A stretch of 64,000 bases of DNA from Nannocystis bainbridge (GCF_028368995.1 NZ_JAQNDL010000003.1:800001-864000), one strand, 5' to 3'. Shown: positions 8,209 through 29,826, numbered from the stretch's first letter. Notes: generated from the letters alone by a model not told the origin. Translations and numbers: made by a program.

Positions 8209-8949
8209 ATGGCCGTCATCGATAGACATCGCGTCGCCCGCCTCGTGGAGCTGTCTGCGGCCGAGCGCACCCTCAAGGGGCCCGAGCGACAACTGCGCGA
8301 GGAAGACGTCAAGCTGCTCATCAGGGCGGCCTATGATGACGCCATGGACGCGCCGCGTGCCGACTTCATGGCTCGCGTGCAGGGGGTGCCGACGAGCGCG
8401 TGGCCCTGGTCCGCGGTCCAGGTGATGGCGCCGCGCGGCGGAACTGGCGTCAGCCTTGGGGGCCTCGTCGGCGTGCCGAGACCCGCCCTGATCCCGGCGC
8501 TGCTCGTGCTGATCCGCGGCCAGGCGGACTCGGCGGATCTCGATCCAGGTAATCGGCTCCCCGAGCCGGGCTCGCCCGAGTTCGCTGAATGGGAGCCGCT
8601 GCAGAGGGCGCTCGATACCTGGGACACGCAGACGATCACGAAATCGATCGGCCCGCAGGGGTGGGTCAGCATGATTGGCAACACTTCGGGGCAGGCGCCG
8701 AGAGACACGGAAGACGGAGCGACCAGCGGGGCGCCCGCGGCGGGCACCTCACCCAACCCGCCCCCCAGCAGTGTGCCGGCGCCACAAACGCCCCCAACGC
8801 CGTCGGAGCTCACGTGGAAGCACCCCGCCGTGATCGCGGCTGGGGTTGCAGTCGCGGTCGCCACCGGCGCGGTCCTCTACTCACTCGCCCAGAGCCGGAG
8901 CCGCCGCGAGCTCGAAGACGTGCTCTCGCAACAGGAGGAGCAGCCGTGA
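8209..8949 (+). CDS. Tail-anchored membrane protein
   Basis: AAGGAG RBS; Pro-rich linker then TWKHPAVIAAGVAVAVATGAVLYSLAQSRSRR. Confidence 0.75.
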   Translation: MAVIDRHRVARLVELSAAERTLKGPERQLREEDVKLLIRAAYDDAMDAPRADFMARVQGVPTSAWPWSAVQVMAPRGGTGVSLGGLVGVPRPALIPALLVLIRGQADSADLDPGNRLPEPGSPEFAEWEPLQRALDTWDTQTITKSIGPQGWVSMIGNTSGQAPRDTEDGATSGAPAAGTSPNPPPSSVPAPQTPPTPSELTWKHPAVIAAGVAVAVATGAVLYSLAQSRSRRELEDVLSQQEEQP

Positions 8950-9815
8950 ACCGCGGGATCTGGATCACTCTGGGCACCGCGCTCGGCGTCGCCGGCGTCG
9001 GTGGAGCGCTCCTCCACAGCCGCCGCGCGAGCGCGGCGAGCCTACCCACTCCCGCGCCGGGTCCCGGCCCAGCTTCGGGCCCCGTGCCTGCGCCCGGCCC
9101 AGCACCGCACATCGAGCTGGCGCCGCTGCCCAGGGCCGCCGACGTCAACGGCGACCTCTCGACCAACTGGGGAGAGACGCCGGTCGACCTCCGGCCGCTC
9201 TTCGTGCTGATGGAAGAGATCGCAAGGATCCCGGGCTCGGCCCGCGTGTTCGCGGTGATCGCCTACCGCGAGTCTCGCTTCGTCACGACTGCCCACAATG
9301 GCAACGCAACCGACGAGCAGGACGAGCGCGACGGCTCGCGGCTCGCCTACGACAACAACAAGGCGAAGAACCCGCCGCTGCGCTACGGCGAGCATGCCGC
9401 AGAGTTCGGCAGTGGTGGTCTGTTCGGGGCGCTCGCGCCCTACTTCCTGTGGACCGGCGTGCCCGAGGTCCGCAGCAAGGCTCCGCTCCTGAACGCGCCG
9501 CCTGAGCTGGTCTTTCAGCCACGCGCGGCCGCCTTCGGCGCTGCCGTGTACATGCAGCGGATCCTGAGGAACTACCGCGTCGACGACATCGCCGACATCA
9601 AGGTGGGCTGGGCCAACCCCTCGCTGCTCGGCAGCGGGCGCGGTGGAACCAAATACCACGACGTCCGGGCCCGGTTCCTCACCGACGCAGTCTTCCTCGA
9701 CATCGATCTGACCGACGCGACGACGATCCCCCCGAAGCTCGACGCCTCGGCGTGGCCCGGCGTGCCCGCTGTGTTCGCCGGCCTCGCCGGCGCCCTGCCC
9801 AAGGATCTCGCATGA
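8946..9815 (+). CDS. N-terminally anchored lytic transglycosylase-like protein
   Basis: GTGA overlap; N-terminal TM, Pro linker, AVIAYRESRF (SLT-like ES motif), GGLFG. Confidence 0.55.
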   Translation: MNRGIWITLGTALGVAGVGGALLHSRRASAASLPTPAPGPGPASGPVPAPGPAPHIELAPLPRAADVNGDLSTNWGETPVDLRPLFVLMEEIARIPGSARVFAVIAYRESRFVTTAHNGNATDEQDERDGSRLAYDNNKAKNPPLRYGEHAAEFGSGGLFGALAPYFLWTGVPEVRSKAPLLNAPPELVFQPRAAAFGAAVYMQRILRNYRVDDIADIKVGWANPSLLGSGRGGTKYHDVRARFLTDAVFLDIDLTDATTIPPKLDASAWPGVPAVFAGLAGALPKDLA

Positions 9816-10825
9816 CCCCCGACCTCAGCTGCTACGGCGAACACATCCGCGGGCTCGCCGACCTCGTCGGCGATTTCGACCTGCGCTCGCCGATGGACGT
9901 GCATGCCTGGTACCGGGTGGAGTGGCAGGCGATCGCCGAGCTGCTCGGGTTCTCGCAGGAGCTGGAGGCGACGCTCGCCCCGCTCCGCGTCGTCCGCGAC
10001 CGCGTGACCGCGACCAACCAGGCTGGCATCGACGCCTTCGCACGCTGGCTCCGCGGGCAACGACCTGGTCTTTCTGACAGCCACGCTCGCACCCAGGATG
10101 CCGTGCTGACGCAACTCGTCGCCACCGGCGAGGAGCGGGGCGAGATGTGGCGTGTGGCGGTCGACCCGACGACCCTCGCCACCGGCGCGTGTTACGACGA
10201 CGGCGGCCAGCTCCGCCGCGCGTTCTACCCCGACACGGCGCCGGGGTACTTCGGAGACGGCTGGAACGGCCCGCCGCCGCGGGCGGAGAGCGCGTGCGGC
10301 TGGACCACGCCGCTCGTGCTGCACCTCGGCACCTTCCCGTGGGTATACAGCTCACGGATCGACGGGCCTGGCGTCGGCGCGCGCTGGGCCTCGAGCGCGA
10401 ACATGCCGGCCGTCGCTGGGATGCGGGCCATGGCGCGGCTGCTCGAGCCCGGCGGAAACCTCAGCCAGGACGCCCGCCAGGTCGCGGCGATCTTCGAGCA
10501 CTTCACCGCCCACACCGCGCCGCTCATCGCCCGCCTGCCCGTCTATCAGCCCGGCCGCGCCGTGGCCGGACAGCTCTACCGGCGCGCGGGCTTCCTGTAT
10601 GTCCATCAGGGCAGCCTGCACCTCGCCGGTCTGTCCGGCCCTCGCGGTCGCATCACCGCTCCGGCCTACAACTACTCTCTGCGCCGCTTCGCCTGCTTCT
10701 TCGCGGTGCGACGCGCGGCCTTGCGGGCCCTCGTGGCGCTGCCGTCCAACCTCCAGCGGATCGCCGAGAGCTCGGGCGACCCGTGCCTGCGACGACACGT
10801 CGAGGAGGTGGCTCGTGCCGGCTGA
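9812..10825 (+). CDS. Hypothetical protein
   Basis: ATGA overlap; 337 aa; no family recognised. Confidence 0.7.
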   Translation: MTPDLSCYGEHIRGLADLVGDFDLRSPMDVHAWYRVEWQAIAELLGFSQELEATLAPLRVVRDRVTATNQAGIDAFARWLRGQRPGLSDSHARTQDAVLTQLVATGEERGEMWRVAVDPTTLATGACYDDGGQLRRAFYPDTAPGYFGDGWNGPPPRAESACGWTTPLVLHLGTFPWVYSSRIDGPGVGARWASSANMPAVAGMRAMARLLEPGGNLSQDARQVAAIFEHFTAHTAPLIARLPVYQPGRAVAGQLYRRAGFLYVHQGSLHLAGLSGPRGRITAPAYNYSLRRFACFFAVRRAALRALVALPSNLQRIAESSGDPCLRRHVEEVARAG

Positions 10826-10877
10826 ACGCTGTCCACGCCACTCGACGAGCGGAACCGCGCTGGTCTACCCTGCGCGT

Positions 10878-28910: not shown

Positions 28911-29026
28911 GCTCGGCGGACGACGAGCATAGAACGAAGGGATGCGTCCGCGCGGCGCGAAGGGAGAAGTCGGGATGGTCATCGCGTTCTACAACGATCT
29001 GGGCGGCATCAACGGGGAGCGTCGCC

Positions 29027-29617
29027 ATGGCGCTGCCTAAGCTCGCTGCGCGCGTCATCCTCGGCTACGTCGGACTGGTCGAAGGAACAGCCGCGCTGAT
29101 CCGTTTCAAGGAGCGCTCGACGGCCTTTCAGATGGCCGCCGAGCGCGCCACGGCCCTCGGACGCCGGCTCGTCGTCGTCGGTGACCCCGACGCGGGCATG
29201 CACACTCGACTCATGCGGGCCTACGGCTGCGGTGACGTGTGCATCGATATGAATGGTTGCCCGGGGTGCCCGATCACCATCGTCGCCGACATCACCAAAG
29301 GTCCGGTTGCGGACATCGCCGACGACTCATCGGTCGTGTTCGTCTCGTGCGTCCTCGAGTACGTGTCCGATCTGAACGCGGCTCTCCGCGAGATCGCGCG
29401 GCTCGCCGGCAGCCCCGAGAACGTATTTGTCGTGACTGTGCAGCCGTGGACCCTGACCGCGCGCCTGTACCCCGGTGCGCGCTGGCGAGGCACGGTCGGT
29501 AACGCCGCCGGGGCGCAGACCGTCGACATGAAGCAGGTCGGCCTCGAGGAGAAACTCGTCGTCACCGGGGCGCTGGGCCTGGCGCTCGCGGCCGCGTTCT
29601 GGCCGAGGAAGCGGTGA
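29027..29617 (+). CDS. Membrane-anchored class I SAM-methyltransferase-like protein
   Basis: LVVVGDPDAG, ADITKG, VVFVSCVLEYVSDLNAALREIARL; ends GALGLALAAAFWPRKR. Confidence 0.6.
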   Translation: MALPKLAARVILGYVGLVEGTAALIRFKERSTAFQMAAERATALGRRLVVVGDPDAGMHTRLMRAYGCGDVCIDMNGCPGCPITIVADITKGPVADIADDSSVVFVSCVLEYVSDLNAALREIARLAGSPENVFVVTVQPWTLTARLYPGARWRGTVGNAAGAQTVDMKQVGLEEKLVVTGALGLALAAAFWPRKR

Positions 29618-29826
29618 GCGCCGTGTCCGAGACGAACGCCGAGCAGGCTCTAGAGCTCGCGCGGGCCGAGGCACGAACCCTGGCGGACCAACTCCGCCAG
29701 GCCCGCGCGGACCTTCACCGGCTGGGCATCGCCGACCAGAACCGGGCTCTCGTCTGCGCGGCCGTATCCGGCGCACTCGGCATCCTATGTGGCGTCGGCA
29801 TCGGGTTGAGCATCCGAAAAAAGTGA
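29614..29826 (+). CDS. Small coiled-coil tail-anchored protein
   Basis: GTGA overlap; ends ALVCAAVSGALGILCGVGIGLSIRKK. Confidence 0.7.
   Translation: MSAVSETNAEQALELARAEARTLADQLRQARADLHRLGIADQNRALVCAAVSGALGILCGVGIGLSIRKK

Follow-up and report, generated by a model that had tools for sequence, protein, structure and literature searches.

Do the hydrophobic C-termini of ten proteins encoded within one integrated element represent a dedicated address label, or are they ordinary membrane anchors? This question is raised by element A of Nannocystis bainbridge, which lies at 3321..31311 (strand unassigned) of a 64,000-nt stretch of DNA (NZ_JAQNDL010000003.1:800001-864000; hereafter the window, to which coordinates refer unless a contig or locus is named) in a host genome of 11 Mb and 68% G+C. 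The element, of ~28 kb, was recognized by blastn against a second copy (copy B) and by Pfam matches to an integrase and an HTH_17 protein. An earlier reading of this DNA (the original prediction) had proposed that ten of its proteins share a C-terminal transmembrane segment with a basic end, and that this tail is an element-specific sorting or assembly signal which docks different cargo domains on one membrane. The explanation that we favor, with roughly even confidence, is that the tails are ordinary bacterial tail-anchored-type membrane anchors with no dedicated address label, distributed over some five unrelated families in an integrated, virus-like element. Such anchors are a known kind of feature; what is unusual is their density, in an undescribed virus-like integrated element.

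Ten proteins with hydrophobic C-terminal tails

The ten proteins, designated TA1 to TA10, are all encoded on the + strand. Each predicted open reading frame (ORF) is present at its predicted start, and most are preceded by Shine-Dalgarno-like purine runs. Hydrophobic spans were defined by Kyte-Doolittle hydropathy in 19-residue windows. By this approach, the C-terminal window of nine of the ten proteins was found to have a mean of 1.71-2.25, and these nine tails consist of an uncharged stretch of 20-26 residues followed by 2-4 Arg/Lys residues. The predicted C-terminal segment with a basic end was thus borne out for nine proteins but not for TA9 (start at 29027), the C-terminal stretch of which is weak. 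A strict rule (one hydrophobic segment only, ending no more than 12 residues from the C-terminus), applied equally to all proteomes, was passed by 7 of the 29 element proteins, namely those starting at 23351, 23547, 23756, 25721, 26226/26247, 28080 and 29614. As strict single tail anchors the other three did not hold up: TA1 (8209) has 19 residues beyond its span and a weak internal hydrophobic segment (residues 83-102), TA2 (11240) has an internal hydrophobic region, and TA9 has its weak terminus. As expected of tail-anchored proteins, the spans lie within about 30 residues of the C-terminus by hydropathy (7/10 by the strict rule), and nine of the ten proteins have no N-terminal signal, with TA9 carrying an amphipathic N-terminal segment. 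The predicted absence of N-terminal hydrophobic segments, TA9 apart, therefore holds for the N-termini as called, and in-frame upstream extensions of all ten ORFs were likewise found to contain no hydrophobic, Sec-like stretch.

TA1 (8209..8949, 246 amino acids) is encoded directly after g7434, the gene of a spike-like protein described below; its span (residues 205-227) is followed by SRSRRE and 13 more residues, and the protein has no Pfam, PHROGs or NCBIfam match. TA2 (11240..13150, 636 amino acids) has a span at 607-629 followed by RSRRTNAR, with its internal hydrophobic region at 115-159; a profile of 15 TA2 sequences found nothing among PDB sequences. Two small proteins are encoded next to each other: TA3 (23351..23545, 64 amino acids) has a hydrophilic N-terminal half, a span at 40-58 and the end RR, and TA4 (23547..23753, 68 amino acids) has a GxxxG-rich span at 41-65 and the end RRR. 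Two further proteins of 70 amino acids are TA6 (25721..25933; span 39-64, end RRGRD), which is shortened by a deletion in copy B, and TA10 (29614..29826; span 43-68, end RKK). TA7 (26226..26819, with an ATG at 26247; 190-197 amino acids) carries a WAPWL motif, a span at 168-188 and the end RK, and TA8 (28080..28910, 276 amino acids) carries a WAPYL motif, a span at 254-275 and the end RR. TA9 (29027..29617, 196 amino acids) has a weak Methyltransf_11 match and ends in RKR.

TA5 (23756..24649, 297 amino acids) combines an M23-like domain with PG_binding_1, followed by a span at 271-294 and RAREE. Its M23-like domain scores below the Pfam gathering cut-off, and TA5 is the only element protein recognized by PHROGs, as endolysin-like (E 1.3e-7). 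M23 peptidases carry an HxH motif. Among the TA5 homologues examined (the best 120 of 276 at E <= 1e-5, 59-100% identical), HxxxD is present in 119/120 and the canonical HxH in 0/120, with M-[IVL]-H-[LF]-E at the place of HxH. To judge from these residues, the domain may be a degenerate, regulatory LytM-type domain and not an active peptidase.

Frequency and conservation of the tails

The frequency of such tails in the host was estimated from ORFs, taken from stop to stop, that have 60 or more codons and a G+C content at third codon positions of at least 0.80 (n=8379, the elements' own genes included). A C-terminal span ending no more than 12 residues from the terminus was found in 258/8379 host ORFs (3.1%), and a span followed by at least two Arg/Lys residues in 108/8379 (1.3%). 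The binomial probability of finding at least 9 among 29 is 1.4e-7, or 0.0018 when only 5 independent families are counted, and none of the 65 proteins of phage lambda passes the strict rule. The density of C-terminal spans in the element is beyond chance, about one gene in three or four encoding a tail-anchored protein. By contrast to this density, the Gly/Ala/Val richness of the spans is that expected from a genome of 68% G+C.

Distinct orthologue tails numbered 28 for TA1, 16 for TA2, 11 for TA8 and 3-8 for each of the others. In every family the residues themselves drift, yet the span and basic end are retained, and tails are kept in orthologues down to ~30% identity. The tail of TA3 is kept in four orthologues, down to 53% identity. 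For TA5, a span with a basic residue at the end is kept in 118/120 homologues, and a hydrophobic N-terminus is found in 0/120. Because spans and basic ends persist across orthologues, the small ORFs are real genes and their tails are under selection. That part of the original prediction which placed different cargo on a C-terminal span without a Sec signal is therefore upheld: the arrangement is far commoner than in the host and is conserved in the family.

Comparison of the tails with each other and with host tails

To compare the tails as sequences, hidden Markov models (HMMs) were built from ungapped alignments of orthologue tails anchored on the span end, each omitting one family (TA7 and TA8 being treated as one), and were searched against ~8300 host C-termini plus the held-out tail. 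The held-out tails ranked 1, 2, 7, 14, 56, 60, 107, 590, 1145 and 1876, and with scores of 14-19 bits the top host tails equalled the element tails. Host tails that score equally had been named beforehand as the outcome that would tell against an element-specific signal. The five Trp motifs that had been listed (TWKHPAV, RWLGPAV, VGWWII, RRWAPWL and LKWAPYL) are all present, and the Trp before the span is kept in 27/28 TA1, 15/16 TA2 and 4/4 TA5 tails, less so in those of TA7 (3/4) and TA8 (4/11). A Trp at the same position was found in 75/249 host C-terminal spans (30%; Fisher p = 0.29), so that it does not serve as a distinguishing mark.

Some of the proteins resemble one another outside or within the tail. 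TA8 aligns in the cargo domain with both TA7 and TA1 (hhalign E 1.8e-4, probability 48% each), and TA7 and TA8 are matched by BLASTP at 1.8e-5 within the set of ten. The alignment of TA1 with TA7 covers the tail only, and TA1 and TA2 have only the tail in common (hhalign E 3.9e-4, 36 columns); the four proteins of 64-70 amino acids are weakly alike. These alignments are suggestive of a cargo kinship of TA1, TA7 and TA8 without establishing it. Part of the repetition of the tail may be paralogy, and only about five families are represented among the ten proteins.

Alternative explanations of the tails

As originally predicted, the Trp motif, span and basic end would form an element-specific sorting or assembly signal of a sortase- or exosortase-like kind, which the SDH protease encoded at 25044 could process. 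In archaea, an NfeD-type protease cuts its partner stomatin in the hydrophobic C-terminal region, and in the element the gene of a membrane-anchored serine protease lies among those of the tail-anchored proteins. The order of an aromatic residue, a span and a basic cluster mimics tripartite C-terminal signals such as those of sortase, exosortase and MYXO-CTERM systems, in which a short motif precedes the hydrophobic span and basic residues close the protein; the Trp is conserved among TA1, TA2 and TA5 orthologues, and the tails of TA1 and TA2 align. Substrates of LPXTG/sortase, PEP-CTERM/exosortase and MYXO-CTERM systems have Sec signals, a family-wide signature and a dedicated enzyme. By contrast, the element tails come without Sec signal or common signature, the leave-one-out HMMs fail to separate them from host tails, and nearly a third of host tails share the Trp. 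No NCBIfam C-terminal sorting model was matched at E <= 0.05, and no sortase, exosortase or CPBP family was found among the element proteins by Pfam and NCBIfam, the SDH/ClpP-like enzyme being the only protease and most proteins being orphans. In the short-variant loci of the element family g25044 had no tblastn match, and the N-anchored ORF that follows TA9-like genes there encodes an esterase. We thus find a dedicated sorting signal improbable. It is far less probable still that the hydrophobic ends are a functionless by-product of high G+C content in short or mis-called ORFs. A genome of 68% G+C does offer abundant spurious ORFs, and four of the ten proteins have only 64-70 amino acids; however, both ORFs and tails have persisted as protein sequences in copies with 44-71% identity as well as in other genomes, nearly all TA5 homologues retain the tail, and equal composition yields only the host rate of at most 3.1%.

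Alternatively, the tails could be stop-transfer-like anchors of exported proteins, with the basic end in the cytoplasm and the cargo in the periplasm (N-out, C-in), reached by a Sec-signal-free route. One such route could be holin-like lesions made by the small Gly-zipper proteins TA3, TA4, TA6 and TA10, and 23351-24649 would then be a lysis or wall-remodelling cassette. Consistent with export, the Arg/Lys content of the C- versus N-terminal flanks is biased toward C-in for TA1 (3.1 vs 1.0), TA2 (3.4 vs 2.1), TA6 (3.0 vs 1.3) and TA8 (2.5 vs 1.5), the internal hydrophobic region of TA2 could be a signal anchor, and N-out behavior was described for one S. coelicolor tail-anchored protein in which the span is followed by four basic residues (PMC3087755). 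The M23-like and PG_binding_1 cargo of TA5, with its match to PHROGs endolysin families, and the tight packing of the TA3, TA4 and TA5 genes point the same way; as in phage lysis cassettes, two small membrane proteins are encoded directly before a peptidoglycan-binding, endolysin-like protein. Unlike in such cassettes, TA5 is itself C-terminally anchored, TA3 and TA4 have a layout opposite to that of typical holins (a hydrophilic N-terminal part and a span followed by just 2-3 residues), PHROGs yielded neither a holin nor a spanin family in the element, and TA3 and TA4 have no PHROGs match at all. The weak methyltransferase-like cargo of TA9 would require cytoplasmic S-adenosylmethionine. In addition, signal-less cargo domains of 200-270 residues are not known to cross the membrane by YidC-type routes, which counts against export of this kind. 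On balance we regard stop-transfer anchoring as unlikely.

Proposed tail anchoring at the cytoplasmic membrane

According to the explanation that we favor, namely generic tail anchoring, the tail proteins, which have no Sec signal, would most likely be inserted post-translationally into the cytoplasmic membrane. The N-terminal domain would probably stay on the cytoplasmic face, with the 2-4 terminal basic residues at the far interface. Post-translational insertion with cytoplasmic cargo is favored because the Gly/Ala-rich spans fit the moderately hydrophobic class. According to PMC6794478, insertion of tail-anchored proteins in E. coli requires neither SecYEG nor YidC, a lower hydrophobicity suffices for tail anchors than for internal spans, and moderately hydrophobic tail anchors can insert unassisted. 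In S. coelicolor, according to PMC3087755, 73 putative tail-anchored proteins were predicted by TAMP finder, and the C-terminal spans of three of these were sufficient for membrane targeting of eGFP. The element proteins are like the examples named there (E. coli DjlC, Flk and SciP; S. coelicolor SCO2900, SCO2973, SecE and SCO7133; PMC6794478, PMC3087755) in that they lack an N-terminal signal and have one moderately hydrophobic span right at the C-terminal end, in some cases followed by basic residues. They are unlike these scattered, housekeeping examples in that seven to nine of them occur within one 28-kb mobile element, and in that their cargo consists of unassigned families and a peptidoglycan-binding protein.

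By such anchoring, envelope-acting and structural proteins (TA5; TA1, TA7 and TA8; the four proteins of 64-70 amino acids, all with a hydrophilic N-terminal half) would be gathered on one membrane patch, on which a particle or transfer complex could assemble. The N-terminally anchored proteins g8946, the SDH protease and g5829 would sit alongside, and soluble g7434 would probably be recruited to the patch. Bacterial tail-anchored proteins have been little studied, and the element represents a natural, compact test set: its seven to nine tails, of graded hydrophobicity and with or without Trp or extra basic residues, could be used to probe insertion and orientation.

Several points weigh against this reading. 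By the positive-inside rule, the charge bias of TA1, TA2, TA6 and TA8 predicts C-in and cargo-out. The M23-like and peptidoglycan-binding cargo of TA5 would find its substrate only outside the cytoplasm; an anchored wall enzyme on the cytoplasmic face would be of use only once the membrane enters a particle or the cell lyses. The internal region of TA2 has a mean of 2.19 and is stronger than the protein's own tail, so that TA2 is probably not single-span and has two or more spans. TA9 is the weakest of the ten, with a C-terminal uncharged stretch of 17 residues and a hydropathy peak, of 1.53, at the N-terminus only. The host background is crude, since starts are uncalled, short genes are missed and many matches are the last helices of polytopic proteins. 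As to the element itself, no capsid, portal, terminase, tail or conjugation family was detected among its proteins by Pfam and PHROGs, and Pfam gave no packaging ATPase family, a divergent P-loop being still possible; in any frame of 1-33000, no Walker A motif was found outside the giant helicase apart from one in a Cys-rich tail and one in an unlikely frame. Because capsid, portal, terminase, ATPase and conjugation genes are unrecognized, the label 'virus-like' hangs on one fold match. In addition, the element family is absent from IMG/VR, three core proteins have no tblastn match in 50,697 phage records, and g7434 has none in 72,556 plasmid records; this absence counts on the same side.

The spike-like protein g7434 and its neighbors

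The best-conserved marker of the element family is g7434 (7434..8159, + strand), which encodes a soluble protein of 241 amino acids with an N-terminal beta-sandwich and a spike-like C-terminal domain. Its AlphaFold model has two domains and a mean predicted local distance difference test (pLDDT) score of 89.5. Residues 148-241 match domains of phage tailspike, baseplate, capsid-spike and CBA120 TSP4 proteins by VIA-align (Z 10.4-11.2, root-mean-square deviation 1.9-2.2 A over 84-89 residues). In BFVD, 174 matches were found at E <= 0.001, the named ones being for the most part tail, tail-fibre or baseplate proteins. Foldseek against PDB gave no match at E <= 0.001, and the matches of the N-terminal beta-sandwich are non-specific (Z 5.5-7.1).

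Relatives of g7434 numbered 159 at E <= 1e-3 in the protein collection. The gene was found in 9/73 genomes of the order (this genome included), in 6/10 other genomes sampled from the genus, in 8 GTDB-representative loci, all of Nannocystis, and in 84 metagenome loci, 80 of which were kept. The family loci are syntenic. Where the ORF downstream of g7434 is complete (52 loci), its product has a C-terminal span in at least 38 cases, and most of the 14 exceptions resemble frame-choice errors, frameshifts or weaker spans. The following gene is TA1-, TA8- or TA7-like depending on the subfamily, a TA8 gene directly following the spike-like gene in one of them. A predicted complex of g7434 with residues 1-160 of TA1 scored 0.26 against a mark of 0.32. 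Always upstream of g7434 is g6778 (6778..7425, + strand, 215 amino acids), which is soluble and has a beta-sandwich core and at least nine invariant Cys residues across 13 sequences, with a terminal Cys cluster, CCSACASGHDCQSGC. Its model is poor (pLDDT 58), and the best matches, to carbohydrate-binding module (CBM) or Cry domain III folds, are non-specific (Z <= 8.5), those to CBMs not exceeding chance level.

Within the family, short variants encode an N-anchored Abhydrolase_2 protein (a phospholipase/carboxylesterase) and a protein in which a subtilase is joined to an SLT transglycosylase domain; these enzymes lie at L012:13951-14742, L074:15073-15888 and L012:18440-20704. The giant gene described below lies on the opposite strand in the short variants. 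In one Nannocystis exedens copy, an insertion of ~2.4 kb (L015:10411-12831) splits the g7434 homologue. Only four soil-metagenome runs contain 5-8% of the searched words, with no RNA run listed.

Comparison with membrane-containing phages

A hydrophobic segment is present in 17 of the 29 element proteins by raw count, and 13-14 are read as membrane-bound when the giant protein, the integrase, g14447 and g2781c are set aside as having soluble-core segments. This share (13-14/29) was compared with those of PRD1 (14/30) and PM2 (6/21). By the same hydropathy rule, three of the 21 proteins of PM2 have a single C-terminal span with a basic end: the structural proteins P3 and P8 and gp j, which terminate in VMRGNK, VIKRK and ISKGVN. 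In PRD1 no protein passes the strict rule, 14/30 have hydrophobic segments, and the span of transglycosylase P7 lies 22 residues from the end. The element is thus like PM2 (Corticoviridae) in its proteins with a hydrophilic N-terminal part, a C-terminal span and a basic end, and in PM2 gp j adjoins the spike P1; it is like PRD1 (Tectiviridae) in its many small membrane proteins and in a wall hydrolase anchored in the membrane near its C-terminus (P7 in PRD1). Unlike either phage, it has no recognized major capsid protein or Walker-A packaging ATPase, is 28 kb long and carries a giant methylase-helicase. Based on this comparison, a virus with a membrane in its particle serves as the working precedent for the gene content of the element, but the element is not filed with the internal-membrane phages, because their defining capsid and ATPase genes were not found.

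The product of g9812 was considered as a double-jelly-roll capsid protein, and this candidate was dropped, since inspection of the sequence suggests a mostly helical protein and the short variants lack it. As to a vertical jelly-roll major capsid protein of the PRD1/PM2 type, the two proteins modelled, g7434 and g6778, offered beta-sandwiches (the N-terminal domain of the former, the core of the latter) with non-specific matches only. Its profile gave nothing below E 0.5 among PDB sequences, and in the ESM Atlas the best matches of g9812 and TA2 were unnamed clusters at 0.87 and 0.88, under the 0.9 level.

The element belongs to no described kind. Given its integrase and excisionase, its spike-like protein and its failure to show up in IMG/VR, PHROGs or the collections of phages and plasmids, it may be an unrecognized myxobacterial virus or transfer element. 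A bolder proposal, which we think rather unlikely, is that it is the provirus of an undescribed membrane-bearing virus, or a vesicle-borne element, of Nannocystaceae that does without the standard pair of capsid and packaging ATPase. The tail-anchored set would then be the envelope proteome, with g7434, docked on anchors of the TA1/TA7/TA8 type, as the spike; the anchored wall and lipid hydrolases would act during entry or exit, and the giant protein, as SNF2 translocase and methylase, would travel with the DNA or move it.

Extent and gene content of the element

Copy B lies at C2:1904778-1930553 and has 79-92% DNA identity to element A by blastn. Homology between the two covers 3321 to 31278 of the window, from which element A was sized at ~28 kb. 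Copies were also searched by tblastn, with the giant protein of 2742 amino acids left out of the whole-set run; a third, more distant copy was found on contig C1 (proteins 31-81% identical) and a partial fourth on C3. All convincing genes of 5211-31313 are on the + strand, and the right end is formed by an excisionase-like HTH_17 protein and a tyrosine integrase (29851..31313, + strand; Pfam). Pfam families were matched by only 5-6 of the ~29 element proteins, namely the giant methylase/helicase, the M23-like and PG_binding_1 protein, the SDH protease, the weak methyltransferase, the excisionase and the integrase, and an NCBIfam scan gave no family beyond these.

The giant protein (15126..23354, + strand, 2742 amino acids) consists of an Eco57I-type N6 methylase and an SNF2 helicase (Pfam, PADLOC, tblastn), for which PADLOC gave generic SNF2 and methylase matches only. 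The ClpP-like SDH-type serine protease (25044..25721, + strand) has an N-terminal span and matches PF01972 at E 1.2e-15. Protein g5829 (5829..6275, + strand), a membrane protein of 148 amino acids with 2-3 hydrophobic stretches in its C-terminal half, is conserved in copies B and C, as it is in further genomes of Nannocystis. Protein g8946 (8946..9815, + strand, 289 amino acids) has an N-terminal span at residues 5-23, a Pro-rich linker and a conserved C-terminal domain for which no match was found in Pfam, NCBIfam or PDB sequences (profile, none below E 0.5); its candidacy as an SLT-type transglycosylase was dropped when the profile gave nothing. A small Cys-rich putative lipoprotein (10878..11243, + strand; 121 amino acids, 13 Cys) has an N-terminal hydrophobic leader that ends in Cys. 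A second such putative lipoprotein, with a weak Dickkopf_N match, is encoded at 2020-2352 on the - strand, just outside the element.

Between TA2 and the giant gene, 13162-14040 encodes a low-complexity protein that is rich in Lys, Glu, Pro and Ala and ends in the acidic stretch EDEDEDD; its position is conserved across the element family, and it is possibly a DNA-binding or scaffold protein. The next gene, g14042 (14042-14437), encodes a soluble protein that terminates in the Cys cluster CGGCGKTCGCGPC; this cluster and that of g6778 could be metal sites or disulfide knots. The N-terminal 213 residues of the giant protein (15126-15758) are duplicated, at 43% identity, in a separate gene at 14447-15088, of which copy B retains only a 63-residue remnant. 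Also in copy B, 25888-27731 is deleted, which removes the C-terminus of TA6, the gene at 25936-26229, TA7 and the N-terminal part of the gene at 26894-28087; either TA7 is dispensable or copy B is defective.

Elsewhere in the host genome, two proteins encoded on the - strand (C1:1732672-1734678 and C2:2255778-2256932) have Gly/Cys-rich motifs, a span and Arg runs (e.g., GGCGCASAGGPVGLWTLVVLAALPRRRARRR), ends which look like MYXO-CTERM sorting signals.

The only common word of at least 15 bases is AGGCGCTGGAGAGCT, which occurs at 399-413, 31297-31311 and 35190-35204. It is too short to be called an att site, and the occurrence at 399 lies outside the homology to copy B. Integrase fragments at 34560-35203 of the window are 93% and 62% identical to parts of the element integrase, one of them with an internal TAA, and a further fragment at C2:1840987-1841376 is 98% identical to it, which suggests that these fragments are remnants of earlier integrations.

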